A stretch of 64,000 bases of DNA from an uncultured archaeon (GTDB lineage Archaea > Asgardarchaeota > Lokiarchaeia > Sigyniarchaeales > SOKP01), in NCBI GenBank assembly GCA_964486045.1, contig CAZALK010000012.1, positions 111,206 to 175,205 of the forward strand, read 5' to 3'. The notes beneath the pieces are model-generated. The model made no database searches. It was not told the origin of the DNA and saw only the letters and a list, made by a program, of their open reading frames with translations. Shown one piece after another: positions 1,498 to 63,965 of the stretch. How positions within the stretch are numbered: the first letter of the stretch is position 1; every line of letters begins with the position of its first letter. The position numbers and the translations under genes were made by a program.

Positions 1498-1773
1498 ATG
1501 GCTGGATCAGATTACATTTCTTGGTCACCAATAAGACGTCTCATGAAGCACAACGGGGCTGTAAGTCAATAAACCTCTTTTTGACTGGCTAAAATCGTTG
1601 CGCGAGATGCCGTTAATGAGTTAGTTGATTGGATGGGTCAATCAGCAGAAACACTCACAAAAACCGCGTTAACTTTAACTAAACACTCTAAAATTCTTAT
1701 AGGATTCCTATAAAAATAGGAAAGAAAGAAAGTAACGCGTAATGACATCTTATTGGCCATCAAGTATTTTTAA
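1498..1773 (+). CDS. Archaeal histone (HMf-like fold, 71 aa) in three exons: 1498-1562, 1593-1692, 1723-1773
   Basis: Spliced translation MAGSDYISWSPIRRLMKHNGAVIVARDAVNELVDWMGQSAETLTKTALTLTKHSKRKKVTRNDILLAIKYF has histone-fold hallmarks (PIRRLMK, xVARDA, HSKRKKV..xDI); SD upstream, T-tract downstream. Confidence 0.92.
1563..1592 (+). other. BHB-type intron 1 in histone CDS (30 nt)
   Basis: Central helix GGCT(1557-60)/GGCT(1587-90); bulge GTA and A-rich 3' bulge; inner stem AGTCAA/TTGACT; outer stem CAACGG/TCGTTG; carries in-frame TAA and TGA. Confidence 0.85.
1693..1722 (+). other. BHB-type intron 2 in histone CDS (30 nt)
   Basis: Central helix TCTA(1687-90)/TAGG(1717-20); bulges AAA and AAA; inner stem TTATAGG/CCTATAA; carries in-frame TAA and TAG. 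Confidence 0.85.
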
Positions 1774-1823
1774 AGGGATTTTTGAATTAGGTAATTTACT
1801 TAATTCATTAAAATATCTAATAC

Positions 1824-1847
1824 TCTTTTTTTTATCTTCTTTTTTTT
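1824..1847 (+). terminator. Oligo-T tracts, probable archaeal intrinsic terminator of the histone gene
   Basis: Two long T runs about 50-75 nt after the stop codon. Confidence 0.45.
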
Positions 1848-1893
1848 CAAAATTTAATCCTAAATAGATCATTTTATCGTTCTGTTTGAATTT

Positions 1894-2046
1894 ATGCTTA
1901 TAGTACTTAATCTCTGTATAGGGTGCGGGGTTTGCGCTTCTAATTGTCCGTCTGGAGCAATTATGCTAGAAAAGGTTCTAGATAATATCCCTGCTAGAAA
2001 TCAAACAGAAATGAGAATAAAATATATGGAAGAGAGAGTTTATTAA
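1894..2046 (+). pseudogene. 50-aa ORF with one 4Fe-4S motif; probably the C-terminal remnant of a larger ferredoxin-domain gene
   Basis: MLIVLNLCIGCGVCASNCPSGAIMLEK...; one CxxCxxCxxxCP and no second motif. Confidence 0.55.
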
Positions 2047-2056
2047 AGCTCTTTTT

Positions 2057-3595
2057 TTATTGTGCAATGCTCAAGTAAGGAGGTTTCATAATTCCCTCCC
2101 ACGCCACGCGCTCCTTTCCGTACGGATCATCAACCACTTTAATCTCCTTTCCTAAAAACATCGTACTCCTCTTTTCAGTCTCATATTTGGGCCACTCAGG
2201 TATCCCACTGTGAGACGGATTTCCAGTTCGGGCAAACGCAATCCATGCATCCATAATTTTTTCACTGAGTTTTTCCGCATCTTCACCTTTACCTGAAAAT
2301 AGATTCCAACCTGGTTCCTCCAACATTCCAAATACAAAGGGTATTTCTGTAATGTGACATGCTCCGAGATTCGCACCCATAAAGGGAGATGGCCACGTAA
2401 ACAAATACATGTAAGTATTGGAATTTTGTACTGATTGAACCTCTGCCGTTCGAATTGCAGAAATACGAAATTCAAGATCGGTGGAAAAAGCATCGAGGAC
2501 CTCCTGAGCAGAAAGAGATCCTTCATCCTTCCTTGTTTCTCTATATGACGTTATGAGGCGTTCTGCTTTATCTCCGTTTTCACCGAGGGATGTCACAATA
2601 TTTTTTATCCTATTATGCATCATTTCTTCATCTGCTTCTTTGAAGTTGGGATTAAATGTTTTCCATATCGTGGATTCATTCAAATTTGTTCCAACTAGCA
2701 GATCAACTCCTGCTGCGGTGCCCTTACGAATTAAATCCAGGGGGTGTTCGGGAATATGTTCACCATCAATGAAAGGAGCGATTGAAAAAGGCCAAGGTTT
2801 TATTGCTCCATTTTCTAACGAAATTTTTGATTGAGCATTTACGAGCTCGTAAGCAGAAATTTTCCGGAGCTCTTCGATATCACTCTTTTCAATCCCTACT
2901 TCTGAAATTACACGCTCAGTTATATCTTTACCCTCAGAAGCCCTATAACTTACAGGATTGCATGCACCGCTTTGAGCAATTACATGGTGAAATAAACCCT
3001 TAGCTTCAGGCATAACTAACAGTGTTGAAACTGCCATACCACCTGCACTTTCACCAAAGATTGTAACATTGTCAGCATCCCCTCCGAAATTCTCGATGTT
3101 ATCGCGAATCCATTTTAAAGCCGTAATTTGATCAAGCATTCCTACGTTTGAAGTGACACCTGGTATAAAAGAGAAACCCAGAGAATTTAATCTGTAGTTT
3201 ATTGTAACTACTACCACATTTCCCCTTTTAACTAAGGATGTACCATCGTATATTCGTCCGCTACCAGTATTAAACCCACCACCATGGATCCAAACCATTA
3301 CAGGTCGTTTATTCTGATCGGGGGAAGGTGTCCAAATATTCAAGTTAAGACAATCAGGTTCACTTTGCGGGTTTTGGGGAAATAACAATACAGGAGGGAT
3401 CATTTGAGGACACACAGGTCCAAATTCTGTGGCATAAAATACTCCCGGAAATCGCGTTGCGGGAATTGGGGGTTTAAAACGCAAATCCCCCACCAGTCTT
3501 TTGGTATAAGGTATTCCTTTAAATATTTCTATACCCTCATCTTTAATACCTTGAATTTTTCCCGCTTTTGTTTCAATAATTTCGGTTCTTACCAT
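2057..3595 (-). CDS. Carboxylesterase type B (PnbA-like)
   Basis: WIHGGGF oxyanion motif, FGESAG nucleophile elbow, catalytic His in GACH. Confidence 0.95.
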   Translation of the reverse strand: MVRTEIIETKAGKIQGIKDEGIEIFKGIPYTKRLVGDLRFKPPIPATRFPGVFYATEFGPVCPQMIPPVLLFPQNPQSEPDCLNLNIWTPSPDQNKRPVMVWIHGGGFNTGSGRIYDGTSLVKRGNVVVVTINYRLNSLGFSFIPGVTSNVGMLDQITALKWIRDNIENFGGDADNVTIFGESAGGMAVSTLLVMPEAKGLFHHVIAQSGACNPVSYRASEGKDITERVISEVGIEKSDIEELRKISAYELVNAQSKISLENGAIKPWPFSIAPFIDGEHIPEHPLDLIRKGTAAGVDLLVGTNLNESTIWKTFNPNFKEADEEMMHNRIKNIVTSLGENGDKAERLITSYRETRKDEGSLSAQEVLDAFSTDLEFRISAIRTAEVQSVQNSNTYMYLFTWPSPFMGANLGACHITEIPFVFGMLEEPGWNLFSGKGEDAEKLSEKIMDAWIAFARTGNPSHSGIPEWPKYETEKRSTMFLGKEIKVVDDPYGKERVAWEGIMKPPYLSIAQ

Positions 3596-3712
3596 ATTTT
3601 TTTCATCTCACTTATTTGGTTATCTTAACTTTTTTTTACAATAGAGATATAATTTTTATTATTATTTCAATTTTATTTCTTCATTCGATTATGTATTTAA
3701 ACTCTGAGTATC

Positions 3713-4474
3713 TTAATGAAGAACAACTCCACCACATATACTTACAATTTGACCAGTCATGTAGTTTGACTCATCCGATACCAAGTAAGAAATCAGACCT
3801 ATTACATCTTCAGCAGTTCCTACTCTTTGTAAAAGCGGTTTCATATTTATCATATTCCAAAAATTTTGAATTAAGTTTGGATCATTCTTGTATATTGGTG
3901 TGATGTGATATCCTGGACAAATAGCATTTGCAGTTATCATGGGTGCAAGTTCTTTTGCCAACACTTTAGTTAAAGAGATCATTGCCGCTTTACTACAGCT
4001 ATATATTCCAATACCAGGCATTGGTTCTAATCCAGCAATTGAAGACACGTTAATAATTTTTCCCCTTAAGGGTTTTAAATCCGTCTGTTCTATCATAAAT
4101 TTTGCAGCATACTTTGATACTAACCATGCTCCTTTAAAGTTTATATCCATTATTTTCTGCATGTCTTCTTCCGTTTTATTAAGAATTGAGGTAGCCCCTC
4201 TACTAATTCCGGCGTTATTAATAACTCCATAAAGTCCATTTAGCTCGTTTACAATTTCTGAAATCATTGATTCAACAAATTTTGAACTTGATACGTCTCC
4301 TACTTTAATTAAAGTTTTGATGTTGAACTTTTTTAACAGTTGATCAGTTTCAACTAATTTACTCTCAGTTCTACCGTTTAAAATGATGTTATATCCATCT
4401 TCAGCTAATCTTATGGCCATTGCTTTACCTAGACCAGAACCGGAACCTGTTATTAAAACATTTTTACTATCCAC
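3713..4474 (-). CDS. Short-chain dehydrogenase/reductase (FabG-like)
   Basis: TGSGSGLG, NNAG, YSCSK. Confidence 0.95.
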   Translation of the reverse strand: MDSKNVLITGSGSGLGKAMAIRLAEDGYNIILNGRTESKLVETDQLLKKFNIKTLIKVGDVSSSKFVESMISEIVNELNGLYGVINNAGISRGATSILNKTEEDMQKIMDINFKGAWLVSKYAAKFMIEQTDLKPLRGKIINVSSIAGLEPMPGIGIYSCSKAAMISLTKVLAKELAPMITANAICPGYHITPIYKNDPNLIQNFWNMINMKPLLQRVGTAEDVIGLISYLVSDESNYMTGQIVSICGGVVLH

Positions 4475-4657
4475 TTTTTTACGCCTCTTTACAAAATAGA
4501 ATTAATTAGAAATATTTGATTTTAATTAAAAATCTTATTTCCTTTTTTAATTATACAGTTCTTTATAAATCAATATGAAGATTAACAAAAAATAAAAGAT
4601 TAAAATAGGTTAACGATTAATACCAACTAAATAATTAAATAATCAAAGTGGAAAAAG

Positions 4658-5581
4658 ATGCCTTATTTTGAAAAGGAAAACTTAAAATTATATTATGAGG
4701 ATGTCGGTGAGGGAGAAGCAATTATATCTAACCATGGGTTATCTGAGGATGGGAATTATTGGAGCGAAACTGGTGTTACAAAGGAATTATCAAAAAAATA
4801 TAGATTTATTTCAATGGATATGAGGGGTCATGGTCGTACCATTGTAAGAGAACCTCCCTATGGATATGACCCAGATACTATGGCAAGCGATTTTGATGCG
4901 CTTGCTGATTTTTTAGGTCTTGATAAATTTCACATTTTAACTCACGCTACTGGCGGGATGGTGGGTGCACGTTATGGTATGATCCGATCCGAACGTCTTA
5001 TTAGCCTAATGCTAACTGACACTAGTTCAAACACACGCATAGAAATTCCCGATTATCGAGAGTTTACAGATGAAGAGAAAGCAATAAGAGATCAAAGAAC
5101 TAAGGCTTGGGAAGAAGCCAAAGGGGAAGATAGACAAAAAATGATAGATTCATGGAAGGCAACTGTATCAAAGATTACAATTGAGCAAAGGATGGATGGA
5201 ATCAGACAAGAACCAGGACCCTATTTATTCAAAATGGCAGAGAATCCGGAAAGTGAAAGGATGCTGAAGATTTACGAAGGGTTCTTACGACGGCAAAATG
5301 TTGAAACAATTATTGACTTTCAAACAAGTTTTTATACAGATCCTGATCCTAGAATTGAACAGCTCCAACAGTTCAAATGCCCTACGCTGGTATTATTAGG
5401 AGAGTTTGATGTTGTATTTTTAGAACCAAGTGAGATAATGGCAAGGGAGATACCTGACGTAAAGCATGTAATAATGCCAGGTCTTGGCCATATGACTGCT
5501 ATTGAAGATTCTGAAGGATTTATAAAAGAAATATTAGATTTCCTTGAAACAGTTGAACAAACTGGAAAAGCTAATAAATAA
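4658..5581 (+). CDS. Alpha/beta hydrolase fold protein with atypical nucleophile elbow
   Basis: HG motif, DMRGHG, THATGG in place of GxSxG, GEFD, GH. Confidence 0.85.
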   Translation: MPYFEKENLKLYYEDVGEGEAIISNHGLSEDGNYWSETGVTKELSKKYRFISMDMRGHGRTIVREPPYGYDPDTMASDFDALADFLGLDKFHILTHATGGMVGARYGMIRSERLISLMLTDTSSNTRIEIPDYREFTDEEKAIRDQRTKAWEEAKGEDRQKMIDSWKATVSKITIEQRMDGIRQEPGPYLFKMAENPESERMLKIYEGFLRRQNVETIIDFQTSFYTDPDPRIEQLQQFKCPTLVLLGEFDVVFLEPSEIMAREIPDVKHVIMPGLGHMTAIEDSEGFIKEILDFLETVEQTGKANK

Positions 5582-5753
5582 ATTAAATTATAATATTTTA
5601 CATTTCATCTTTTTTATTTTAGTCTTCTTTTTAATCTTTCCAAGTGTACAATTAGATTAAGATTTATAATTGTCTTATTTTCATAGACGAAATTGTAAGT
5701 TATATTTATCATTTTCGGAAAAATTATTTTTTATCCTATATTTTTAAAATTGA

Positions 5754-6758
5754 ATGAAAGAAGTATATCAAGGAATATTTTTAATTGAGGAAAAGGGGAG
5801 ATTCAACCCTTCAGATAACATATATGTGATAGCCGGAAATGATGGTTTAATTTATGACGCGGGATATGGATCTAAAAAAGCATTAAAGTTATTTTTAAAA
5901 GAATTCGAAGAGATACAGAACTATTATAAGAAACAAAATAAAGACTTTAAAGTCACCCGAATAATCGTTAGCCATGGCCACTCAGACCATTTTAGCGGAG
6001 TCAGGTTTATAAGAGAAGACTTGGGCTTAAAAATTATTTTGACTGAGAAAATTGCTAAAACTATAAAAGATAAAGTAAGTTTTGAGGCTAATTTTCGAGG
6101 TGATGATTATGAAGATTATTTAAGAGTTAGAAAAAAGTCAGTACGAAAAATATGGAATTTACTTCGTCGTCTTGGTATGCGTTTGTTTTTTAGTAGAGTT
6201 CATGGTCTTTCTTATTTAGATCATCCTGATGAAATTATTGATGAAAATTCAGTTATAGTAATCAATGGTGAACGTTGGAAAATATTTCCGTCTCCAGGAC
6301 ACTCCCCTGAACACATTTCTCTCTATAGTGAGGAAAAGGGGATCCTTTTGGCTGGGGACAATGTCTTAAAGATGCGATCAACTTGGCTTGGACCCCCTGA
6401 GTCTAATATCACAGATTATATTGAAACTATTAAAAAATTACAGAATTTACCAAATTTAAAACTAATTCTTCCAGCCCACGGGGAAATTATTGAAAACGCA
6501 AAGGAAACTCTTTCTGCAATCTTGGGGCGGATGGATGAACGAAAAAGACAAGTATTGGATGCTATTAGGAATTACTCAGATAAAGGGGTATCTCCAGATG
6601 ACATCCTTAATCTTGTTTATCCTAAAAGTAAAAAATTTACACGAATTATTGGTCGTGATTGGGTAGTCTTAACATTGAAAATGTTAGAAAGTCAAAAACT
6701 AATTAAACGAGAGATAAAAAAAAATAAAATATTGTTTTTCCCTTTCAGAACTAATTAA
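5754..6758 (+). CDS. Metallo-beta-lactamase fold hydrolase with C-terminal winged helix
   Basis: SHGHSDHF, PGHSPEH, GD, PAHG. Confidence 0.92.
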   Translation: MKEVYQGIFLIEEKGRFNPSDNIYVIAGNDGLIYDAGYGSKKALKLFLKEFEEIQNYYKKQNKDFKVTRIIVSHGHSDHFSGVRFIREDLGLKIILTEKIAKTIKDKVSFEANFRGDDYEDYLRVRKKSVRKIWNLLRRLGMRLFFSRVHGLSYLDHPDEIIDENSVIVINGERWKIFPSPGHSPEHISLYSEEKGILLAGDNVLKMRSTWLGPPESNITDYIETIKKLQNLPNLKLILPAHGEIIENAKETLSAILGRMDERKRQVLDAIRNYSDKGVSPDDILNLVYPKSKKFTRIIGRDWVVLTLKMLESQKLIKREIKKNKILFFPFRTN

Positions 6759-7638
6759 CCTTGGTTGTGAATTTATTTCTTTTTGTTATATAAAGTGCTA
6801 TACTTAAAATTATTGCGATACTTGCCGGTATTGTAATTAACAAATGGTATCCAAATATAGATTCTTCTGCTCCATTACTCAAAATAAATGTTAGGAGGGA
6901 CGCTTTATCATAGGTAATCTCACAGTTCTTTAGTACTCCATTGTCATTATAAGATATTGTTATTTCAATTTCTTTATGGATTTCATTAAAAGCGCCTTCG
7001 GGGTTATTATAAATAAATCCATTTTCAATTTCAGTTAGCGTAATATTTCCATTGATCATTCCAGAAATTTGGTCTACTAATTCTTGAAAATCTGAAATTA
7101 ATTTAGTCCAATTCAAATTATTTGCGATGAAAATAAGTGAGAAATTATAAAATCCCTGTGGTATATTTATGATACCATATAACCCATAATTAAGCGTCGG
7201 AACAATCAATAAATCTGTCTCATTTGCTAAAACGATAATAGATAATTCGGAAGTTATTAAATCACCCAATCCTGGAATATTTATTGTAAATGATACATTC
7301 ACTTCTTTATAATAATAATCCTCATCACCATATATTGATCCAAGATACTCATCGCTTATCGAAAGAATCGTTGCTTTAAAATTAATTTTTGGATACACTC
7401 CATAAGAAAACAGGTTTTCAATGATGGGAAAAGATATATTTATTAAATCCAATTTATCTTCCATATCAGTGTTAAATTCATTAAGAGTACTTTGGTCTAT
7501 TGAAAGAACCCATGAATAATTTTCTCCAACGTTCACTCCAACATATTCATTAGGAATAGCAGTTGCAAAATGTATTGATGTCGATAATAACAGACCCAAT
7601 AAACAAATCATCAATTTATTAATTTTCGATAATTTCAT
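6751..7638 (-). CDS. Exported protein with C-terminal membrane anchor (paralog A)
   Basis: Signal peptide, YVGVNVG start, C-terminal TM plus basic tail; close paralog of 7687..8589. Confidence 0.8.
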   Translation of the reverse strand: MKLSKINKLMICLLGLLLSTSIHFATAIPNEYVGVNVGENYSWVLSIDQSTLNEFNTDMEDKLDLINISFPIIENLFSYGVYPKINFKATILSISDEYLGSIYGDEDYYYKEVNVSFTINIPGLGDLITSELSIIVLANETDLLIVPTLNYGLYGIINIPQGFYNFSLIFIANNLNWTKLISDFQELVDQISGMINGNITLTEIENGFIYNNPEGAFNEIHKEIEITISYNDNGVLKNCEITYDKASLLTFILSNGAEESIFGYHLLITIPASIAIILSIALYITKRNKFTTKVN

Positions 7639-7686
7639 CTATTTTTCAACCAAATATGGAATTTTGTTTTTTCCTCTCGGATTTAA

Positions 7687-8589
7687 TTAACATTGGTAAG
7701 GGGTTCCCTTTTTTTTCTTGATATAAAATACTATACTTAACATTAGTGCGGTGCTAGTAAATATTGTAATTAAGAGAATATATCCACTTATAGATTCTTC
7801 TGCACTAATACTTAAAATAAATGTTAGGAGGGTTGTCTTATCATAAGTAATCTCACAGCTTTTAAGCACTCCTTTATCATTATAAGATGTTGTTATTTCA
7901 ATTTCTTTGTGTGTTTCATTAAAAGCTCCTTCGGGAGTTTTAAAAATAACTCCATTGTCAATTTCGACTGCCGTAATATTTTCACTGGTTAGTACAGATA
8001 TTTGGGATAATAATTCTTGAAAATCTGAAACTACCTTAGACCAATTCAAATTGTTAGCTATGAAAAAGTATGAGAAATTATTTAATCCTGGGGGTATTGC
8101 TATGATGTCAAGTAATCCATAATTAATTATATGAATAATCCAATAATCTGTTCCATTAGCTAAAACTTTAACAGACAATTCAGTGGCTAACAAATCTCCT
8201 AATCCCGGAATATTGATTCCAAATGATACATTCACATCTTTATAATAATAATCTACTTCTGCAGGCCCACCTCCATAATTGTAAGTTGAACCAATATGCT
8301 CATCGCTTATTGAAAGAATTTCTGCCTTGAAATTAATTTTCGGGTTCACTCCATAGGAGAAAAGGGTTTCTACGAGGGGGAAATATGGATATATTAAATT
8401 TAATTTCTCTTCCATATCAGTATTAAATTTATTAAGTGTAGTTTGGTCTATTGAAAGAACCCATGAATATTCTTCTCCTACATTTACTCCTACATATTCA
8501 TCTGGAACAGCAGTAACAAAATGCATTGAGGTTGATAACAATATACCAAATAAACAAATAATTAGTTTATTAATTTTCGATAGTTTCAT
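7687..8589 (-). CDS. Exported protein with C-terminal membrane anchor (paralog B)
   Basis: Same architecture and extensive identity with 6751..7638. Confidence 0.8.
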   Translation of the reverse strand: MKLSKINKLIICLFGILLSTSMHFVTAVPDEYVGVNVGEEYSWVLSIDQTTLNKFNTDMEEKLNLIYPYFPLVETLFSYGVNPKINFKAEILSISDEHIGSTYNYGGGPAEVDYYYKDVNVSFGINIPGLGDLLATELSVKVLANGTDYWIIHIINYGLLDIIAIPPGLNNFSYFFIANNLNWSKVVSDFQELLSQISVLTSENITAVEIDNGVIFKTPEGAFNETHKEIEITTSYNDKGVLKSCEITYDKTTLLTFILSISAEESISGYILLITIFTSTALMLSIVFYIKKKKGTPYQC

Positions 8590-8786
8590 TTATAATTCAA
8601 CTAAATGTGGAATTTTGTTTTTTGTTATAATTAATTGGGATACAACCTATTTAAAAGCTATTAAATTAGAGGATATTAAGCTACTGATAAGATACCTATA
8701 AAAGTAATAGCTATTTATTTAACTTCTATATTACTAAGGATTTATTAACTTATTTCTAAATTGATAAGTGAATTAAATTAGTTTAA

Positions 8787-10997
8787 ATGAACTTAAAATC
8801 TTACACCGATATAATAATTAAAAGGAAAAAACCTCTTCCTCTCCATAACATGCAAGTGGAATCAAAAAAATATTACAATGGTCCGTATATAAAAAAAGAT
8901 ACTGTTTTTTATCGACATTATCAAGAAAATATTGTAAATAGTTGTACAAATAAAAATTCTTTAGTTGTATTACCCACTGGTTTAGGAAAAACTATTATTG
9001 GAATTTTACTAATTTCACGTGCTCTCAAAAAGTATTCGAAGGGAAAAATAATTGTGCTTGCTCCTACAAGGCCATTAGTTAATCAACATAAAAGTTCTTG
9101 TGAAAAGTTCCTAGATATTGAGACTGAAAAAATCGTATCTTTCACAGGAAAGATATCCCCTGAGAAAAGAATCTATTTATTCAAAAATTCAAATGTAATC
9201 GTATCTACTCCGCAAGTAATTAATAACGATTTAACCAGAGGTCGTTATGACTTAACACGAGTCTCATTAATTATATTTGATGAGGCTCACAAGACAAAAG
9301 GAAGATATTCTTACAATTTCATTTCAAAAGAGTATAGTAAGACGTGCAATGATCCTTTGATTTTAGGATTGACAGCTTCACCAGGAAAGGATTTTGAACA
9401 TATACAAGAAATCTGTGATAATTTACTAATAGAAAATATTGTGTTTAGAGGTTATGAAGATGAAGATGTAGTCAAATATATTCATGAAATAGATACTTTT
9501 ATAAATTTGGTAGATCTACCAATAAAGGTTTTGGAATTAACCCAAATTTGGCAAAATCTCTTTCAAAACTTTTTAAGCTTCTTTATAGACAGAAAATTAA
9601 TTAATCCATTCAAGAAATACTACTCAAAATTAGATTTTTTGAGAATCTCTCATGATCTAACAGTATCAATAAGATATGAACAGGGTTACGAATTAGAAGA
9701 TGAATATATGGATTGCTTATTTTATCAGGAGCCAAAGATTATAGACATTATCAAAGATAAAGATATTGATATACATTCAGTTTATTCATATTGTTCAAGT
9801 TGTGTCTCTCTTCTTCATGCAAAAGATTTAATTGAAACCCAAAATATTTCACTTTTTATTTCTTTTTTGGAAAGGATTAAATACAAAGCTGAAGAGGGGA
9901 TCCTCTCTGCAAAAAGAATTGTAAATTCCAAGCATTTCAAATTAATAAATTCAATGATTGAAAAAGAAAATACACAAAATTTAACTCACCCTAAAATAAA
10001 CAAGATTATCTCAATCATTCGAGAAGAAAAGGAAGAATATAGTAATAAGAAAATAATAATTTTCACACAATTTAGAGAAATGGCCGAATTTTTAAAGATT
10101 AAATTGAAAAACGAATTTCAAGATCATTTAATAATTGAGAAGTTTATTGGTCAGTCTTCTAAAATAGATGATATTGGGTTTTCCCAAAACGTACAAGGAG
10201 AAATTCTTCAAAAATTCAGAAATGATAAAATTAATATTCTAATAGCAACAAGCGTTGCTGAAGAAGGGATTGATATCCCAAATGTAGACGCGGTTATATT
10301 CTACGAACCTGTTCCCTCTGAGATAAGATTAATTCAAAGGCGAGGAAGAACAGGTAGAACTGCCCCTGGAAGGTGTTATATTTTAGTAACCGAAGATACT
10401 GTTGATATTCCATTTTATCATGTTGCTAGGAGAAAAGAAAACTTAATGAAATCTATTCTAACCGATTATGACCAAATAAAGTTGAATGAAAACCTGGAAC
10501 GCAAATCAATTACTTTTTCAGTGTCTGAGATAAATGAATGTGCAAATATAGATCTCGTTAAAAATTTTAAGGAAAGAAGAGAACGAGAAAAAGAATTATT
10601 GGCAGACCGTTCGATTGAGGATATTCTTAGCCAATTAGATAATTTTTGCAAAAGTGAGGAATATGAAAAAATTAAGGAATCAGGAGTGACTTTTTATTCG
10701 GATCTATTACAATTAGATCTGTCAAATTTGAGAAATAAGATATCAAAAATAAAAGGGAGGAAAAAAATGCATCAAGAAAAAAGAAAGATATACCTAAACA
10801 AAAATGTAAAAGCTATTATTAATTTAGTAAAGACTTATGGAGAAAATGGTAAACTAGATTTTAAAAAATTACAGCATCTTGCTAAAGAGGAAGAAATAGT
10901 AGATCGGAAATTCTTTATTCATTTTAACCAAGCTTGCTTTCAAGGATACCTTAAAAAGCACATGGATAGTGTTCAATTTATTATGGATTATGATTAG
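8787..10997 (+). CDS. hef: Hef/FANCM/Mph1-family SF2 helicase, no recognisable ERCC4 nuclease domain
   Basis: LPTGLGKT, APTRPL, DEAH, TASPG, TSVAEEGIDIP, QRRGRTGR. Confidence 0.88.
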   Translation: MNLKSYTDIIIKRKKPLPLHNMQVESKKYYNGPYIKKDTVFYRHYQENIVNSCTNKNSLVVLPTGLGKTIIGILLISRALKKYSKGKIIVLAPTRPLVNQHKSSCEKFLDIETEKIVSFTGKISPEKRIYLFKNSNVIVSTPQVINNDLTRGRYDLTRVSLIIFDEAHKTKGRYSYNFISKEYSKTCNDPLILGLTASPGKDFEHIQEICDNLLIENIVFRGYEDEDVVKYIHEIDTFINLVDLPIKVLELTQIWQNLFQNFLSFFIDRKLINPFKKYYSKLDFLRISHDLTVSIRYEQGYELEDEYMDCLFYQEPKIIDIIKDKDIDIHSVYSYCSSCVSLLHAKDLIETQNISLFISFLERIKYKAEEGILSAKRIVNSKHFKLINSMIEKENTQNLTHPKINKIISIIREEKEEYSNKKIIIFTQFREMAEFLKIKLKNEFQDHLIIEKFIGQSSKIDDIGFSQNVQGEILQKFRNDKINILIATSVAEEGIDIPNVDAVIFYEPVPSEIRLIQRRGRTGRTAPGRCYILVTEDTVDIPFYHVARRKENLMKSILTDYDQIKLNENLERKSITFSVSEINECANIDLVKNFKERREREKELLADRSIEDILSQLDNFCKSEEYEKIKESGVTFYSDLLQLDLSNLRNKISKIKGRKKMHQEKRKIYLNKNVKAIINLVKTYGENGKLDFKKLQHLAKEEEIVDRKFFIHFNQACFQGYLKKHMDSVQFIMDYD

Positions 10998-11020
10998 TCT
11001 TTTACTTTTTTAACCAATAA

Positions 11021-41618: not shown

Positions 41619-41723
41619 TGGGGCTCAGAGGGGGTTTACCGCGTTGCAGGAATCCAGCATTCAAAATCGATCCCCCGTCTAGGGATTCACAGTCCCCAAT
41701 TCTCCCATTGAACTACCCGAGCC
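41619..41723 (-). tRNA. tRNA-His(GUG) with encoded G-1 and CCA, and an intron at 59/60
   Basis: Acceptor GCTCGGG/TCTGAGC, G-1:C73, anticodon arm GGGGA-CTGTGAA-TCCCT, T stem GGGGG/CCCCC. Confidence 0.9.
41636..41665 (-). other. 30-nt BHB intron in the T-loop of tRNA-His
   Basis: Helix ATCG/CGGT with bulges ATT and AAA; removal gives 7-nt T-loop ATCGATA. Confidence 0.85.
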
Positions 41724-53888: not shown

Positions 53889-54001
53889 TTTTAATTCACT
53901 TCTTTAGAATATGATTATATTTTTAGTTTATTTGCTTAAAATAGTAATCGATCTTTATTTTACTTTTACTATATGGAGATTAAAAACAGCAGATATTGTA
54001 A

Positions 54002-54850: not shown

Positions 54851-55065
54851 ATTCTAACTAAATTTTTTTAATCCCTTATAGATTAATTCATCAACCCTAC
54901 ATAAAAATATTGACAAATTTTATAAAATTCCGTTCGAAGAAGACGTTTAGTTGAAAACATAAATCCGAATTTATTTTTCTCAACGGCATTCCTGATGTTA
55001 AATCTGTAAATATTCATTTATTATAGGCAAGAACTCCTATTTACAAATTTCGTGATCGATCTAAA

Positions 55066-57726
55066 TTAAAAGGAAGGAATTTCGAGAAAATCTTGATTTC
55101 TAAGTTTTTGCTTTATAACCACTTTCACGAATAAAATAATGAAGATCGCAGGAATTAATCCTAAAAAGCAAATCAAAAATATTCCCGCTAAAAAAACATC
55201 AGTAATGTATGTATTAAAGAAAATTTGTCCAACAGAATTTATTAGAAAATGCAAAATTATACTTGGTAGAAGAGTCTTTGTTTTAATATACAGATATCCA
55301 AAAGCAAGACCTAAGAATGTCGCATAAATTACTTGAAAAGAAACAGAAATTAGGGCGCTAAGAGGATCAAGGCCAATTAGGATATATGAAATAATATTAA
55401 AGGTATGTGCAAACCCAAAAATAGCACTGCTAATTATAAGAGATGTCCTTATATGATATTTTTTTACGAGCATGGGAATTAACACTCCTCGATAGGCTAT
55501 TTCTTCCCAAATTCCAGGAATAAGCATAATTATAAATAAGAACCATCCAAGACCACCAAATCCCACTCCTGTAGGTTCAGGGTTCCCAAATAATATTCTT
55601 GGGTCAAAAACATAGTGTCCAAGGGTTATAGCTCCAATAAGCACAACGATGCTAAATATAATGAATGATCCAACTCCGACTAAAATATTTCTGATTATTG
55701 GTTTTGATGGTCTTAAATGAATTATTTCAGTATAATCTTTAAGGGAATAAGTCAAATCGGGAAGTTTCAAACCTTTTGGAACTATTAAGAATAATAAAAC
55801 AGCTAGAAATCCAAATTGGAAGAAAAAATCTAAAAAAAGTAGAAAAGTATAATCATTAAGGGTCAATATGTTTATAAATGGAAGAAGTACTAAACCTTCT
55901 GCAAACCCAGCTAAATACAGGAAAAAAGTATATAAAAGTGTTAAGACTATCCCCCCTAAGATCGGATTATTTCTTAAAAAACCTCCAGTTTTATAATTTG
56001 CCACCTTTTGACCTTTTGGAAACATTTTGTTAAAAATAAATACCATTAAAGCTAATCCAAGAATTCCGATTACACCTAAAACTATTATCCCAACTGTAAT
56101 TCCAAAAAAATATATTAAAATATTTCCAATTATTAAAATTGTCAAATAAAGTCCAATACAAGAGAAGATCATAGCGATCCACTTCAATATCTTGTTTTCT
56201 TTATGTAATTCTTCAATGATGTACTTGTATTTCATTTGCCCGAAGAATTTTATTTTTAAAACAAATATAAATAATAACAATATCCACGCAATCGGTAGAG
56301 TTATTAGAAGCAGAATGATTGGTAATATTGATTGTAATATTAAAGCTAGAACTACTGAAGTTATTAAAAGCGATATTCCTTGAAGTGCTAACATTAAATA
56401 GATTTTTGCTTTTGCTTGGTCCCGTGGGAGAAGTGGTAATGAAGCTAAAGTCGAACTACCTGATTCCTCAATGTTTAAAAATCCTACGATTAGCATTATA
56501 GGAATAACAAGGTACAACATAAGTATAATAGACCAAATCATCAATATAGCTTCAATAGAAATGGTCATTTCATTAAATAATCCAACTATTGATAAAATCA
56601 TTATCAATGGATAAAAAATAGGGAAAAATATAAACATAAAAGACTGAATATCTCTTGTAGAAGATACTAAATCTTTTCGGATATATGCTTTAATTGGTGA
56701 GGTAGGTTTTAATTCGAAATGAATCTCTCTCTTTTCTACTTTTACTGTCTTAACTTCTGATGAAATTGCACTACGTAAAGCTTTTTGAGCAAATCTAAAT
56801 ATCAACCATGTTAATATAATGCTTAAAGCAAATCCTGTTAGAGTAGTGAGTATTAAGATAGGATTTACTTGAGCTTGAAGAGTATTTAATGACACTAGAA
56901 ATGCTGGGGCAAATAGGAAAGGAATTAGACTTAAGATGACAATTAAAATGAAAGGTGGTTCATTAGTAGCGAAGATTGTTAATAAACTTTCAATGGCACT
57001 TATTCCCCAACTGAAGAGAAAACTAGTACCAAAAATAATTATAAAATACCCAAGCATAGTGATTGTCCGAATTAAATTCACATTTTTTGATTTAGCTTTC
57101 GATTCTGAAAAAAGAATACTCATTTTCTCCCCTACTATTACCAGAATGCTAAAACTAAGGATCACATTCACAATAGATACTAACAAACAAATAAAAAACA
57201 TGAAGATGTCTTGTGTTGCGATAACCATAATAATTGGGAAGCCCATTATTAATATTATTAGGGGATAATCTAAACTGCGAAATACGGTCATAAAACCTAT
57301 CTTTTTTAATTTTTTTTTAGAGAATGGGAGTGTCTGTAACCACTTAAAAGCATTACCTGACATAAAGGATCCAGTTGAAATCATTCCAAACATAAGCATA
57401 TACATAAGTACCATCCCAAAGAATATCATAAATAGAAAAGAAGACACGAAAAACATTGTATTTATCGAAATAGTGCCTATATTTTCTGTAATCTGAAAAT
57501 ATATCACTAACGGCAGTAAAGGTAAAAATAAAAAAAGAACTGAAAAAGCAGTTTTAAGGGCAATAGATTGATTTTTAATGTAATTTTTATTCTTTTTTAG
57601 TTTTTCAATAAATTTTGCTTGATGTGCCCCCGCACTCGCCATTTGACCCTCCATTAAAATCTCATAAGTGGGGTATTTCGCTAAAGAATACAAAGATTTT
57701 TTTTTTTTTTCATTCACACACATCAA
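55066..57726 (-). CDS. ABC-type permease fused to a C-terminal CPBP intramembrane protease
   Basis: Multi-TM N-part next to ABC ATPase gene; C-terminal EEIAYRG, FGFAH, HFLIN. Confidence 0.82.
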   Translation of the reverse strand: MMCVNEKKKKSLYSLAKYPTYEILMEGQMASAGAHQAKFIEKLKKNKNYIKNQSIALKTAFSVLFLFLPLLPLVIYFQITENIGTISINTMFFVSSFLFMIFFGMVLMYMLMFGMISTGSFMSGNAFKWLQTLPFSKKKLKKIGFMTVFRSLDYPLIILIMGFPIIMVIATQDIFMFFICLLVSIVNVILSFSILVIVGEKMSILFSESKAKSKNVNLIRTITMLGYFIIIFGTSFLFSWGISAIESLLTIFATNEPPFILIVILSLIPFLFAPAFLVSLNTLQAQVNPILILTTLTGFALSIILTWLIFRFAQKALRSAISSEVKTVKVEKREIHFELKPTSPIKAYIRKDLVSSTRDIQSFMFIFFPIFYPLIMILSIVGLFNEMTISIEAILMIWSIILMLYLVIPIMLIVGFLNIEESGSSTLASLPLLPRDQAKAKIYLMLALQGISLLITSVVLALILQSILPIILLLITLPIAWILLLFIFVLKIKFFGQMKYKYIIEELHKENKILKWIAMIFSCIGLYLTILIIGNILIYFFGITVGIIVLGVIGILGLALMVFIFNKMFPKGQKVANYKTGGFLRNNPILGGIVLTLLYTFFLYLAGFAEGLVLLPFINILTLNDYTFLLFLDFFFQFGFLAVLLFLIVPKGLKLPDLTYSLKDYTEIIHLRPSKPIIRNILVGVGSFIIFSIVVLIGAITLGHYVFDPRILFGNPEPTGVGFGGLGWFLFIIMLIPGIWEEIAYRGVLIPMLVKKYHIRTSLIISSAIFGFAHTFNIISYILIGLDPLSALISVSFQVIYATFLGLAFGYLYIKTKTLLPSIILHFLINSVGQIFFNTYITDVFLAGIFLICFLGLIPAIFIILFVKVVIKQKLRNQDFLEIPSF

Positions 57727-57731
57727 TACCT

Positions 57732-58532
57732 TTAATCTTTCATTTTAAAAGATGCCCTTAATTTTTTGATGATTTCATTAACTGAAGTGTCTTGTTCAGT
57801 CAATCGTAGGAAAACATCTTCCAAACTCGCGCCAACTTTGTCTGCTTGTAGACGAAGTTCCTCAATTGTACCTATTCCCACCATTTTACCTTTATTAATA
57901 ATCCCAATTCGATCACATAATTCTTGTGCTATTTCCATAATATGGGTAGAAAAAAGAACTGAACCTCCTCTTTGAGTATGGAGTTCTAAAATAGTTTTAA
58001 CAACTCTTACAGATTTAGCATCGAGACCCGCAATTGGTTCATCTAAAATTAAAAAATCCGGCTCATGAAGAATTGCTGCAATTATTTGTAATTTCTGTTT
58101 ATTTCCATGAGATAAAGTAGCAATTAATTGATCATAATATTCAATTGCTTCCAAACTTTCTAAATAATCTTTTGCGAGTTCTGTAGTTCGTTCCCCATCT
58201 AAATTTCTAATTGAAGCAATGAAATTGAATAAGTTTTTTGGGGTTAAAGATTTAAAAATTAAGGGCTCTTCAGATACGTAACCAATACGGCGTTTGATCT
58301 CAACTTCATTCCGTTCTGGATTTAATCCGAAAACACTCATTTCTCCTTCATTTGGTTCCAGTAGTCCTAAGAGAAGTTTGATTGTGGTTGTTTTACCTGC
58401 ACCATTTGGTCCCAGTAACCCAAAAATTTCTCCTTTATTGATGTCAAATGATATCCCATTTACTGCTTTTACTTCCCCAAAGAATTTCTTTAAGCCTACT
58501 ATTTTAACAATTTTAGTATCGGACATATTCAT
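57732..58532 (-). CDS. ABC transporter ATP-binding protein
   Basis: GPNGAGKTT, LSHGNKQK, LDEP, STH. Confidence 0.95.
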   Translation of the reverse strand: MNMSDTKIVKIVGLKKFFGEVKAVNGISFDINKGEIFGLLGPNGAGKTTTIKLLLGLLEPNEGEMSVFGLNPERNEVEIKRRIGYVSEEPLIFKSLTPKNLFNFIASIRNLDGERTTELAKDYLESLEAIEYYDQLIATLSHGNKQKLQIIAAILHEPDFLILDEPIAGLDAKSVRVVKTILELHTQRGGSVLFSTHIMEIAQELCDRIGIINKGKMVGIGTIEELRLQADKVGASLEDVFLRLTEQDTSVNEIIKKLRASFKMKD

Positions 58533-58622
58533 CTATTAAAATTTATCAATTATCTTAAAGTTTATTTTAGTTTATTACCTTAGAAATTCACATATGATCT
58601 TGTTTTAAAATACTAAGTTGCT

Positions 58623-59500
58623 CTACACTTGAGACGATAAGTCTTTCGGGATTATTTTTTGTTTAACAATCATAATTATTGATATGATCACTAGGAATGT
58701 ACCTAATAGATGGAACAATGTAAATGCTTCGCTAAGTATAAAACTTGCAAACAAAGAATTAACAATTGGAGTCGGTGATAAAATTATAGTTGCTTTGGAT
58801 ACATCTAGATATGAGAGAGTTTTATACCAGCAAAATAATCCTGTCCCGTAAACAACACCCATAGCTATAAAGAAAAAGACATTAAGAGGATTGCTGAATA
58901 AGATTAGCTTATCAACAGGAAAAATAACAAAATAAGTAAAAATTAATAAAAATCCTGAAATAATATTCCTAACAAATACCATTTGTGTTGGAGTCATTTC
59001 ATTTCGAACAAAGTTGTAAAAGATCCTTGAGCTATAGCTAAAAATAAGCCAAAAAATAAGACAATAGAGAAGATAATTTGTACTTTTGTAATTCGCTCTC
59101 TTAAAATCAAAACTCCGAATATCAACCCAAAAAAAACTGAAGTCTTTTGTGTTAATGAACCATTAATAGCTCCAGCTAAATTATAACCTATAAAGAATAA
59201 AAGTTGATTAAGACCAAAAATAATCCCGATTATTATAAGTAACCACGCATTTTTTTTCCAATTTTGCCATACTGTACTTTGAGAAACGGTCTGATTTAAA
59301 TCATTAGTATTTGGATGATTTTTCTTTATCTCCATTATCGTCAAGGGAAAAAACATAATAACCTCAACCAAACAAGTCATAGCTGCGAAGATAAATGCAT
59401 CAAGAGATTGTGGTCGTGCATTAGCTACGATGGGTTGGAAACCTACTATAAATACACCCAGTCCTCCGAATAGAAGTCCTTTCTTAGTCCTAACATCCAC
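58623..59500 (-). pseudogene. EamA/DMT transporter broken by an internal deletion and frameshift near 59000-59025
   Basis: ORFs 58994..59518 and 58623..58997 match the two halves of paralog 38399..39349, with about one TM helix missing. Confidence 0.75.
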
Positions 59501-59569
59501 GATATATAATAGAAACATGAAGAATTTAAAAATTTTAGAATTTTAAAACGATGAATTATTACCTTTATT

Positions 59570-60433
59570 ATGGTTGTAGATAAAAAGTGGTTTATTGGAA
59601 AAATAAATGATTTCTTAAGGATGGATGAAAGTAATAAAATGGTAGGGGTAGACAGCTCATTTATTTTTGAGCCAAACACAATTGTTGGATTTGCTTCTGG
59701 AAATGATTCTATTTTTAATGATTATAAGGATATAATCGGTAAATTTCATCTAACTCCCATTGAAGCCTTTAATCAATTCTGTGAAAAAAATAATCATTGT
59801 TCAACACTAAAGGATCTCTCAATTGTTGCATTTGTGCTCCCAATAAGTAAAAAGACAAAAAAAGAAAACTTCGAACATTCAAAAGAAATGCCCTCTGAAA
59901 GATGGGCTCATACTAGACTATATGGAGAGCAAGCTAATCAGAAATTGCAGAAACATCTAGTTAAAGAATTAAAAAAAGAAGGAATTAATGCTGTTGCTCC
60001 TATGACAGAAGATTATTTATTCAAGACATATGAAAAGCATGAAAAAGGAGTTTGGGCATCCACATGGTCTCATAGACATATGTTATTTGCTTCGGGTTTA
60101 GGCTCATTTGGATTATCGGATGGATTTATTAATGAGCGAGGTAAAGCAATGAGATGTGGAAGTATAATTGTAGATTATAAATTCCCTTCTGATGCAAGTG
60201 AAAGACCGATTGACCCCTATGAATATTGCATAAAATGCGGAGATTGTATTGAGAGATGTCCTGCTGGAGCTATTTCATTAGAAACCCGTCATGATAAAAA
60301 AAAATGTTCTGCCCATGTTTTCAGCGCTATACCATATGTAAGAAAAAATTATGGTATTGATATTTATGGTTGTGGTTTATGCCAAGTTTCCGTTTCTTGT
60401 TCTTCAGGTATTCCAGTAAAAAAGGACAAATAA
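59570..60433 (+). CDS. Epoxyqueuosine reductase (QueG)-like cobalamin/4Fe-4S protein
   Basis: WSHRH..ASGLGSFG, CIKCGDCIERCP, CGLCQ..VSC. Confidence 0.8.
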   Translation: MVVDKKWFIGKINDFLRMDESNKMVGVDSSFIFEPNTIVGFASGNDSIFNDYKDIIGKFHLTPIEAFNQFCEKNNHCSTLKDLSIVAFVLPISKKTKKENFEHSKEMPSERWAHTRLYGEQANQKLQKHLVKELKKEGINAVAPMTEDYLFKTYEKHEKGVWASTWSHRHMLFASGLGSFGLSDGFINERGKAMRCGSIIVDYKFPSDASERPIDPYEYCIKCGDCIERCPAGAISLETRHDKKKCSAHVFSAIPYVRKNYGIDIYGCGLCQVSVSCSSGIPVKKDK

Positions 60434-60529
60434 TAAATAACAAATATATTCTACTACCACATAACGATTTTTTCACTAAAAAAATTAACGAACAAAATTT
60501 ATCTTAAATAAAATAATGAATAGCACAAT

Positions 60530-61372
60530 TTGGAAGTGAGTTTAATTACAGAAACTTATGCCATTTTAACCAATGACCTAACAAAGGAATTCGGGAAAAT
60601 TGTAGCCGTAAATAACTTAAATCTAAAAATTCCTTATGGGGTCACTTATGGATTACTTGGCCCAAATGGTGCAGGAAAAACTACAACAGTAAGGATGTTA
60701 AATTCAATTATCACACCAACATCAGGGAGCGCTCAGGTTGTCGGGTATGATATTATAGATCAAAGTAAGCAGGTGAAGATTAATTCTGGATTTCTTCCAG
60801 AAACACCTGGATTATATCAGAAATTAACCGCAAAGGAATTTTTAGAATTTGTAGGAGAGTTGTATTACCTGCCTAAAGAAGTTATATTTTCCCGCATTGA
60901 TGAATTATTAGGTATTTTTGACTTAAAAGGTCGTGAAAATGATCTTCTGGAAGGATATAGTAGAGGAATGAAGCAAAAAGTATGTTTATGTGCAGCTTTA
61001 ATACAAGATCCAAAGATTATCTTCTTAGATGAACCAACATCTAATCTAGATCCAGCAGCTGCAAGAATGGTGAAAGATCTGATATCTGATCTTGCAAAAA
61101 AAGCAGATAAAACAATTTTTATCTGTACTCATCTTCTTGATGCTGCAGAAGAACTATGTGATCTAATTGGAATAATTAGTGATGGAGTTTTAAAAGTAGA
61201 GGGAAGTCCAAGAGAGATAATTGAATCTGCAAAAGCAGGAAATTTGGAGGATGCCTATCTTAAAATAATGGGTGTTTCTCATATTGAGGATTTATTAGCG
61301 TGGAGAGAAAAAGTCCCAAGAAGATACAACAAAGATGAAAAGAAGAAAATAAAGAAAGGAAAGAAATATTAA
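60530..61372 (+). CDS. ABC transporter ATP-binding protein (no adjacent permease)
   Basis: GPNGAGKTT, YSRGMKQK, LDEPT. Confidence 0.93.
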   Translation: MEVSLITETYAILTNDLTKEFGKIVAVNNLNLKIPYGVTYGLLGPNGAGKTTTVRMLNSIITPTSGSAQVVGYDIIDQSKQVKINSGFLPETPGLYQKLTAKEFLEFVGELYYLPKEVIFSRIDELLGIFDLKGRENDLLEGYSRGMKQKVCLCAALIQDPKIIFLDEPTSNLDPAAARMVKDLISDLAKKADKTIFICTHLLDAAEELCDLIGIISDGVLKVEGSPREIIESAKAGNLEDAYLKIMGVSHIEDLLAWREKVPRRYNKDEKKKIKKGKKY

Positions 61373-61517
61373 TAGAATGGAACTCTGGAAACAAATCACT
61401 AAGTATGAGATTAGGTTAAAGACGAGTCTTTTCGTTAAGCATAGAGTAAAAATTCTTATTCCTCTTAAAATTGAGTAAAATAAATAAAATTTAGACGTTT
61501 GAAAATAATAAAGGAAT

Positions 61518-63338
61518 CTATTTAATATAACTCCCAAACCCGGGGAACTTCTTTAATTGATCTGAATTAAAGATTGGACCATCTTTGCAAACAGAAATAT
61601 CATGATTATCTCCCACGCAGCACGATCCACATAAACCCACTCCACATTTCATTTTTCTTTCAAGAGATGCTTGAATTTTAATATTTTTTAATTCAGAAAT
61701 GTCTAATACTTTTTTCATCATAACTTCCGGACCACATGTAAGAATTAAATCTATATTGTTATCCGTTATTATTTCTTCAATGCTGTCGGTTACAAAACAT
61801 TTTCTACCAAAAGAACCATCATCAGTAGTACATAATGTATTAGGAATTAGCTCCAATAATCTATCAGCAAAGACCAGTGAGGCTTTATCTTTTGCTCCTA
61901 TATTGACAAAGATATTTTTTTCAGTAACCTTTAATGATTCAACAAGTGATGTAACGGCAGCAATTCCCATTCCACCGCCTACAATAAGAATATTTGTAGC
62001 ATTTTCATAGCTCCATGGGTTTCCAAATGGACCTCTTATGCCAATAGAACTCCCTGCTTCAAGATCAAATAACCTAGCGGTTCCCTCGCCAATTTTTTGA
62101 ACTGTAATTTCAATGAGATTTCCTTCTACTTTTGAAATTGACATTGGTAAAAAATCTATATCTGGGAGCCACAAAAATACAAACATTCCTGGTTTATACG
62201 CTTTAGCTATCCTCTCATTTCTCAAAGTAAAGCTCTTAATGGAGGATGAGTGTTCTGTTATTGATTCAATTTTAATAATATTTGTTTTATACCTAGTAAT
62301 ATCTAAAACTAAATCTTCCTTAGTTTTTTGAAGAGTTTTAGTTTTAAGCATTCCTCTTTCAATGGCTAAATCATATATCTTCTTTCCTCTTTCCGTTCTA
62401 ATAATCAATGTTTTCCAGCCATCTTCACTGCCTATATTGCCTATAGAAATATCTGCAAATGAGGATGTATAGTCAGAACATGAAAAGCAAGCATTCCGAA
62501 TTGATTTATCATAAATATAATTTAATGGAATCTCTTTTATCCCAGACTTTGTATGGATCTTCATTTTAAATGTATTTTTTTCAGCATCTACTTTAATAAT
62601 TTCGTCAGCACTTACTTCATATTCACTAAAACATTGGCTCAAAAGTTGATTGTAATAAGTTCCAAAACAAAAAGTCCCAATTGCCAGTGTGATTAGATCA
62701 TATGCCTCATAATCAAACATAGGGTGATATTGTATTTTCCTTAATGATTGAATTTGACAAGGAGTCCCAACGACTGCAATGTCGCTAAATTCTTTATTAA
62801 TAGCATCCCCTACAAGCGATATTGTTGGACTCTGGCTTGGTTTGTAGCCTACTCCTTTGAAAATTTGCTGTTGATTTTCTGCGATTATAGGAAACGGTAT
62901 AAATTTTTCATCTTTATCAGTTATTATCGAACAATCAATTAAACCTGCTTTCAATGCTGTATATAGTAAAGTTGTGATTGGACCTGCCTCTAGGGGTACT
63001 TTTTCTCTTGCTTTGTCTGTTAACTGCACTGTAACTATGTCTAAATAATGTCCTAAAATTTTGTCTTGCACTTTTCCAAATACCCATTGATCAAGTACTG
63101 ACAAGGGAATTTGTTCTATTCCCGTTTTTGGGCATAAATTATAGCATAAACCATATCCATCTCTACAAGTGTTGCTATCTTTACAGGAACCATCTTCAAT
63201 AGGAATTTCTTTTTGAGAATCAAATTTAATATTTGCACAAAATGCACCACACGCTCCACAATATACACATTTACCGGTTCTTATAATTTCAGAATCCAAT
63301 TCTCCCCAACCCTTTTTAATCCTATTAAGATACATCAT
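61518..63338 (-). CDS. FrhB/FdhB-like F420-binding subunit fused to a PyrK-like FAD/NAD(P)/[2Fe-2S] electron-transfer domain
   Basis: CVYCGAC, VGTPCQ, GTFC, C..C.D....ADIS.G; then RGPFG, GGGMG, CGPE, CGVGLCGSC. Confidence 0.85.
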   Translation of the reverse strand: MMYLNRIKKGWGELDSEIIRTGKCVYCGACGAFCANIKFDSQKEIPIEDGSCKDSNTCRDGYGLCYNLCPKTGIEQIPLSVLDQWVFGKVQDKILGHYLDIVTVQLTDKAREKVPLEAGPITTLLYTALKAGLIDCSIITDKDEKFIPFPIIAENQQQIFKGVGYKPSQSPTISLVGDAINKEFSDIAVVGTPCQIQSLRKIQYHPMFDYEAYDLITLAIGTFCFGTYYNQLLSQCFSEYEVSADEIIKVDAEKNTFKMKIHTKSGIKEIPLNYIYDKSIRNACFSCSDYTSSFADISIGNIGSEDGWKTLIIRTERGKKIYDLAIERGMLKTKTLQKTKEDLVLDITRYKTNIIKIESITEHSSSIKSFTLRNERIAKAYKPGMFVFLWLPDIDFLPMSISKVEGNLIEITVQKIGEGTARLFDLEAGSSIGIRGPFGNPWSYENATNILIVGGGMGIAAVTSLVESLKVTEKNIFVNIGAKDKASLVFADRLLELIPNTLCTTDDGSFGRKCFVTDSIEEIITDNNIDLILTCGPEVMMKKVLDISELKNIKIQASLERKMKCGVGLCGSCCVGDNHDISVCKDGPIFNSDQLKKFPGFGSYIK

Positions 63339-63339
63339 T

Positions 63340-63965
63340 TTAGTTCTCCTCCTTTAGTTTTCTTTCAAAATCTTGAGCTTCCTTTTTGCCAAATTCAAAT
63401 GCTTCCATATTTTTCTCTATTGTGGAGCCTGGTACAAATTCTTTTAAAGTTTCAATCGCAGATTCTTCAGAAATTATGCCAGAAAGTATCGTAAACGCTC
63501 CAAAAAGGATTGAATTTCCAAAAACAATATTCCCAAATTTCTCAACTGCTATTTTTTGAACAGGAATACTTAACGCTTTTTTGATTTTATCTGCGGTACT
63601 AAATTTCTCAATTGTAGAGGGATCCCAAATTAAATATCCTGTGTTTTCACCTTTCTTAAAATAATTAGGATTAACACCGGCAGCTGATTCCCCGGACAGT
63701 ACTATTAAAAAATCATATGGTCTCAAAGCTTGAGGATAATCGATAGATTTCACATTTTTATCTAAATCGACTACCACTTCCGCCCAACAACGGCCTCCTC
63801 TTGCTGAAGCGGAATAGGCCTCAGTTTGTGTGGCTGCTAAGTTTTCATAAAGTGAAGCAGCAGTAATTATCATTTTACTTAGGGTTATGACTCCTTAATC
63901 ACTATGAGGAAATCTCAAAAATTTTGACCGCCATACCCCGCAATACGTATTTCATATCTTGCCAA
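63340..63965 (-). CDS. 2-oxoacid:ferredoxin oxidoreductase gamma subunit (KorC/PorG-like, 198 aa); exons 63965-63924 and 63894-63340
   Basis: Spliced N-terminus MARYEIRIAGYGGQGVITLSKM; TEAYSASARGG, N.EAFE.G; GGAGGAG upstream of TTG. Confidence 0.9.
63895..63923 (-). other. BHB-like intron (29 nt) in the gamma-subunit CDS
   Basis: Helix GGTC/GATT, bulge AAA, inner stem TGAG/CTCA, outer stem TATGGC/GTCATA; in-frame TGA and frameshift if retained. Confidence 0.85.

Follow-up and report, generated by a model that had tools for sequence, protein, structure and literature searches.

The 64-kb window analysed here, the whole stretch of contig CAZALK010000012.1 shown above, is part of a 5.18 Mb Lokiarchaeal genome in 45 contigs and carries three genes interrupted by short hairpin introns: a histone gene with two, a tRNA-His gene with one, and a 2-oxoacid:ferredoxin oxidoreductase (OFOR) gamma gene with one (Table 1). 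The original prediction described hairpins of 30, 30, 30 and 29 nucleotides (nt) whose 3' part pairs with the last exon bases, and this is confirmed; the four introns are real. Each is a single hairpin in which a 4-nt stretch within the last six bases pairs with exon positions -6 to -3, and removing each of them restores the sequence of intronless orthologs. The core of the BHB (bulge-helix-bulge) motif, i.e. a central helix of 4 base pairs (bp) and 3-nt bulges with the predicted cut after the second base, is present in 4/4 window introns and in 22 of the 23 mRNA introns that we tabulated. No RNA gene in the window was called by ARAGORN or matched in Rfam.

Table 1. Positions of the interrupted genes, their introns and the apical 8-mers, counted from the first letter of the window
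Feature	Position	Strand	Remarks
Histone gene	1498..1773	+	archaeal histone fold PF00808; exons 1498-1562, 1593-1692, 1723-1773; 71 amino acids (aa) spliced
Histone intron 1	1563..1592	+	30 nt; strict hBHBh'; central helix GGCU/GGCU; in-frame stops
Histone intron 2	1693..1722	+	30 nt; relaxed BHB; central helix UCUA/UAGG; loop GAUUC; in-frame stops
Apical GGATTCCT of histone intron 2	1702..1709	+	intron offset 9; G-C pair closes GAUUC pentaloop
tRNA-His(GUG)	41621..41723	-	missed by ARAGORN; 73 nt spliced; register fixed by intronless orthologs
tRNA-His intron	41636..41665	-	30 nt; tRNA position 59/60; central helix AUCG/CGGU
GGATTCCT in tRNA-His intron	41648..41655	-	intron offset 10
OFOR gamma	63340..63965	-	PF01558; TTG start at 63965; 198 aa spliced
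OFOR gamma intron	63895..63923	-	29 nt; frameshifting; within GxGGQG motif; loop AUUUC
GATTTCCT in OFOR gamma intron	63907..63914	-	intron offset 9

Both histone introns are absent from all 29 related histone loci, two of which contain a different 30-nt BHB insert at other codons. After the start codon the spliced histone is identical in protein to its syntenic intronless ortholog from another species, with 28 synonymous and 0 non-synonymous differences between the genes, and purifying selection spans all exons. The exon-exon helix of intron 2 is weak. A spliceosomal-type donor, GTAAGT, at position 1561 was rejected because its use would put Lys at a conserved Val, and a 99%-identical histone considered as a spliced transcript (P0004) turned out to be an intronless gene of another species. 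Spliceosomal, group I and group II identities were likewise set aside for the introns at large, given variable or AA ends in place of GT-AG, lengths of 27-46 nt where a catalytic core takes hundreds of bases, and no Rfam match in the window.

Public gene callers give OFOR gamma in a truncated 177-aa form; splicing gives a 198-aa protein that shares 83-86% identity with intronless orthologs. Its intron is letter-for-letter the same in two independent assemblies and is common to two congeners, G022 and G035, in the latter with one compensated base pair. A second 29-nt OFOR gamma intron, at codon 42 and with an AUUUC loop, occurs in these same congeners (L174 in G022 and L169 in G035). The intronless orthologs of tRNA-His have an ATCGATA T-loop, and position 54 of the window tRNA is A, not U (T-loop AUCGAUA; window 41666-41671, minus strand), as it is in several congeners.

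A census of coding introns across the genome

The census made no use of the BHB motif: proteins of a congener (G023, the reference; the host genome is G000) and paralogues were aligned to the genome with a frameshift-tolerant aligner, which covered 1,740 ortholog pairs and 505,117 codons. Frame-breaking, well flanked inserts of 12-240 nt were considered, 41 in all. Their lengths form a spike, with 22 of the 41 being 30 or 31 nt, and at the protein-restoring register 22/41 fit the BHB geometry, compared with 0-5 at eight decoy registers. After exclusion of one tRNA, one 5S-like and one doubtful case, the census yielded 22 coding sites, of which 21 are 27-31 nt long. The hosts include RpoA', EF-2, uS10, uL11, two histones with two introns each and three Ras-like GTPases, as well as mevalonate-kinase-like, BadF-type ATPase, GH57, SCP2 and two AIRS-family proteins. 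Sites in OFOR gamma, RNase HII, adenylate kinase, a thiolase and a further enzyme gene came from a trained scan combined with homology, bringing the confirmed coding sites to at least 27. RpoA', uS10 and uL11 have no second copy in the genome, and RNase HII has a single match.

We estimate the total at 35-50 coding introns, or roughly 1% of genes, because short first exons, introns shared with the reference genome and genes absent from it have to be allowed for. A plain de novo BHB scan of the genome gave no excess over decoy registers save a small bump at 29-30 nt, which makes hundreds of introns unlikely; the trained score is useful only at its top, with 28 candidates at a score of 14 or more compared with 7-15 in decoys. 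The expectation of many more such introns genome-wide thus stands as far as recurrence beyond the window is concerned, at the scale of tens of genes, the window being richer than average; that introns of this kind mimic pseudogene breaks was borne out by the census. Three further high-scoring candidates (G000 C1:321841, minus strand; C21:17229, plus strand; C2:197802, plus strand) have junctions unconfirmed by close homologues. The excluded 5S-like case is a 31-nt BHB-shaped insert in a degenerate 5S rRNA-like sequence (G000 C1:82440-82470, plus strand) that repeats 17 nt of upstream sequence, possibly an intron born by local duplication; its ortholog in the reference genome scores only 28 bits against 5S rRNA.

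The introns are a family by structure and not by sequence. Sixteen of the 23 tabulated mRNA introns are exactly 30 nt, built as one bulge base, a 9-bp stem around a 5-nt loop, four helix bases and AA, and exon position -2 is A at 19/23. The same layout was recovered in the 13 tRNA introns found in the genome, nine of them 28-30 nt long, in agreement with the proposal that mRNA and tRNA introns share one architecture. The AA ending, noted originally for the four introns of the window, holds for these and for 15 of the 23 mRNA introns genome-wide.

The prediction of a shared apical motif survives only in a degenerate form. As an exact 8-mer, GGATTCCT is found twice in the window where 2.2 occurrences are expected; 8-mer sharing among the 37 introns used for this comparison is 25, against 19.2 +/- 5.7 in shuffles, and shared 6- to 9-mers show no excess among them. 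Orthologous tRNA-His introns of three relatives have the loops AAGUC, AAUUC and GUUUC in place of GAUUC. An exact 8-mer family was therefore rejected. The preference for a degenerate pentaloop, RNUUM, is a real enrichment: U occupies loop position 4 in 18/20 introns compared with 35% of genomic hairpins, and RNUUM is found in 10/20 compared with 3%; the pattern, defined post hoc, also matches 6/15 sites from other genomes.

Two rules of placement emerged. For 20/22 introns, 21 or more of the 24 flanking residues agree with the ortholog, which is true of 27% of detectable sites (P ~5e-9); this fits either retention where only exact removal is tolerated or a preference for abundant conserved RNAs. 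Among introns whose length is a multiple of three and that were found without a stop requirement, 17/17 carry an in-frame stop, with 10.7 expected from shuffled bodies (joint probability ~1e-4), and no well-flanked BHB insert of 27-33 nt in the census was free of stops. Since every in-frame intron has a stop, selection would appear to act against proteins with a 10-residue insert made from the unspliced message.

Probable splicing by the tRNA-splicing enzymes and the competing explanations

We consider it very likely that these are genuine archaeal BHB introns in mRNA, which EndA cuts and RtcB joins before the spliced mRNA is translated. The machinery is encoded: checking EndA subunit type and RtcB, as had been suggested, revealed an EndA of the broad-specificity (alpha-beta)2 type with two genes, together with adjacent RtcB and archease genes. 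One EndA aligns best to the Aeropyrum alpha subunit and has, besides a crenarchaeal-type loop (GxPLxxxKPR), Tyr, His and Lys as catalytic residues; the second is devoid of the catalytic His and thus the structural (beta) subunit. Immediately upstream of rtcB is a two-intron gene, and after rtcB comes archease, encoded on the other strand (G000 C1:510846-513964). In the proposed mechanism, the pre-mRNA, as its sequence shows, can fold a 4-bp exon-intron helix between two bulges; the two-subunit EndA would cut each bulge behind its second base, and the exons would be joined by RtcB with the help of archease, as known biochemistry and the signs of selection suggest. Unspliced messages would be dead ends, since the in-frame introns all carry a stop and the rest shift the frame. 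With at least 27 protein genes hit, among them RNA polymerase, ribosomal-protein and RNase HII genes that exist in no other copy, mRNA splicing by the tRNA-splicing enzymes is probably routine in this archaeon.

The helix at the center of this reading is conserved across species. Twelve genomes from 5 genera have an intron at His89 of RpoA'. An alignment of ten copies has 93% of cells paired (31-46% in slid controls) and two-sided changes in 10/13 pairs, and the central helix is 100% paired although the synonymous exon base in it varies. This covariation keeps the exon-intron helix at the EndA register, and it speaks against the idea that the inserts stay in the mRNA and that the ribosome hops over them. 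Programmed translational bypassing is known from T4 gene 60 and from the byps of Magnusiomyces mitochondria, and the similar size, the hairpin shape and the obligatory in-frame stops of the present inserts count in its favor. Here, however, matched take-off and landing codons that would give the ortholog's protein exist at only 5/27 sites and at none of the three mRNA introns of the window, and the same elements occur in tRNAs, which are not translated; we judge bypassing very improbable. Even harder to credit is that the genes are dead or misassembled and that the hairpins are what a small mobile element left behind. The genome's metagenomic origin and the absence of the two histone inserts from most relatives would suit this explanation, yet the same inserts recur in independent assemblies and in other species and purifying selection extends across all exons; it fails because single-copy essential genes are the hosts and because the pairing covaries.

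A different departure from the ordinary tRNA pathway would be a dedicated factor, or an EndA cofactor, for which the 9-bp stem and the RNUUM loop serve as a ruler. The tight 30-nt length and the U at loop position 4 invite this idea, as EndA is not known to require either a fixed length or a fixed loop. Versions of 35-85 nt exist at RpoA' sites, however, no candidate factor was identified, and length and loop may be left over from the way the introns arise; we regard such a factor as improbable.

Several observations weigh against splicing by EndA and RtcB as proposed here. The host genome is a metagenome-assembled genome with an estimated contamination of 7.8%. Only histone intron 1 forms the textbook hBHBh' in its minimum-energy structure (z -2.45); histone intron 2 and the tRNA-His and OFOR gamma introns are relaxed motifs with z from -1.6 to 0. 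Two-subunit EndAs are reported to accept relaxed BHB forms. The insert in the GH57 gene (G000 C22:58743, minus strand), a stop-bearing 30-nt hairpin, has no 3-nt 5' bulge at its frame-restoring register and is perhaps a relaxed motif, and the codon-53 inserts of RpoA' misfit the strict register. No spliced transcript or full-length peptide was found in collections that are mostly DNA and possibly omit near-identical records, and a junction scan of JGI contigs found no spliced junction.

Distribution, origin and relation to known systems

The relatives carry introns at partly different sites. The reference congener has introns of its own in EF-2 (at a different codon), purA and RNase HII. On the RpoA' tree, in a sample enriched for carriers, the intron carriers are scattered and four sister pairs differ, which means that introns have been gained, and precisely lost, more than once. 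The short sequences flanking the RpoA' intron gave a tree without resolution, which speaks neither for nor against horizontal transfer. At RpoA' codons 89-91, L185 (G063) and L184 (G025) have introns of 30 and 35 nt around a 4-nt micro-exon. Removal of the first is needed to complete the central helix of the second, a sign that these introns may be spliced in order. Four other loci (L182, L183, L234 and L235) have longer versions of 85, 85, 50 and 40 nt that keep the BHB base and contain between one and three inner hairpins, in many cases with an AUUUC or AGUUC loop, and these may be nested introns.

The RNase HII intron (G000 C1:474888, minus strand) is the most widely shared and splits the first catalytic motif, DEAGR. 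A stop-bearing insert of ~27-45 nt is found in 55 of 86 family genomes, with a break near the same motif in three more, and a stop-free 30-nt insert in none of the 86; these counts come from match lengths and stop counts, the sequences having been seen only for the host and reference genomes. The RNase HII class removes RNA from DNA, and one may speculate that its hosting of an intron is linked to RNA-templated intron gain or loss. In a neighbouring family no stop-bearing insert was found in the RpoA' N-terminal domain (12 genomes) or in RNase HII (2 genomes). On the best explanation, the system extends to tens of conserved genes in this Lokiarchaeal family, where old shared introns, in RNase HII and RpoA', exist beside sporadic recent ones, the two histone introns.

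Insertion at pre-formed BHB-prone sites, as originally proposed, is unsupported, since empty orthologous sites show no extra exon-exon pairing (1.90 vs 1.91), and a spread from tRNA to mRNA gains nothing from an identity of 10.0/30 between tRNA and mRNA introns compared with 10.6/30 among mRNA introns. Similarity of the intron start to the downstream exon, as a target-site duplication would leave, is at chance; that of the intron end to the upstream exon is weakly raised (p 0.014). Palindromic target tetramers seemed to be in excess until a base-matched control was applied (10 vs 8.3). Near-identical introns at unrelated sites, expected from Thermoproteales-type copying, are absent among the tabulated introns. 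Of all non-orthologous introns the two most alike are histone intron 2 and the second intron of a paralogous histone on another contig, five codons apart, at 21/30 identity, a value reached by 2/300 column shuffles; it is a weak sign of possible copying between related mRNAs. In the route we tentatively prefer, at less than even odds, an excised intron would be ligated into an abundant RNA, and the gene would then acquire it by RNA-templated copying. Two reverse transcriptase genes in the genome attest to availability only. That the 30-nt elements are still-active minimal non-coding mobile introns, excised as hairpins with a fixed 9-bp stem and RNUUM loop, re-ligated by EndA and RtcB into abundant conserved RNAs via no more than a 4-base match and then copied to DNA, is a bolder idea and rather unlikely.

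The closest precedent is the intron of cbf5 pre-mRNA in Desulfurococcales and Sulfolobales, whose splicing was shown by complementary DNA (cDNA) (Watanabe 2002; Yokobori 2009, PMC2738675) and whose interior is free to vary (PMC2738675). It too is a short BHB-bounded coding intron, which a hetero-oligomeric EndA cleaves between the second and third bases of the bulge (a cut that is predicted here), and its precise loss is lineage-specific too. Whereas cbf5 is one gene with one site, the present genome has at least 27 sites and two-intron genes; relatives have a 4-nt micro-exon, the lengths fall into a narrow class, and many of the gains look independent; splicing of cbf5 is proven by cDNA, and the introns described here are known from sequence alone. 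The chemistry is the same, the scale different. In a 2020 paper cbf5 is given as the one further archaeal BHB intron on record, and a single substrate in a 5' untranslated region (UTR) is added to it (PMC7714728). This site, in Haloferax HVO_1309, resembles ours in that EndA acts on an mRNA and differs in being a single substrate outside the coding sequence. The non-canonical introns in tRNA genes of Asgard archaea and Thermoproteales (bioRxiv 10.64898/2026.10.13.758758) share BHB boundaries, repeated gains, little sequence sharing and a two-subunit EndA with the present introns, and little copying of introns was found there as well; that study covers tRNA genes only, with no mention of mRNA, has its focus on other Asgard families and gives a median of 22-23 nt, whereas here the mode is 30 nt and the hosts are protein genes. 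Our literature search, which left subscription papers mostly outside, found no paper on Asgard mRNA introns and a single documented archaeal coding gene. What we add is the decoy-controlled census, the test of the motif claim, the stop-codon rule and the conserved-site rule.

The HAC1 and XBP1 introns are likewise short, non-spliceosomal and in mRNA, are joined by a tRNA ligase (RtcB in animals), and leave the unspliced form non-functional. They are cut by IRE1 at two stem-loops and not by an EndA/TSEN enzyme at a BHB motif, and each belongs to a single regulated target. The suggested link to these introns and to eukaryotic gene fragmentation is thus one of analogy, with at most the RtcB ligase shared and common descent without evidence.

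Archaeal protein genes have been assumed to be intron-free except for cbf5. RNA polymerase, ribosomal-protein, EF-2, histone and RNase HII mRNAs that depend on splicing would show that split protein genes accumulate without a spliceosome, in a family that belongs to the prokaryotes closest to eukaryotes. Gene callers cut short or drop the intron-bearing genes, with consequences for marker-gene trees, for estimates of completeness and for the gene inventories of Asgard archaea. The family also offers dozens of natural gain and loss events for testing how BHB introns arise. If the introns were indeed mobile, this would be an Asgard lineage with genome-wide split genes spliced by enzymes, with no spliceosome and with ordered splicing around micro-exons.

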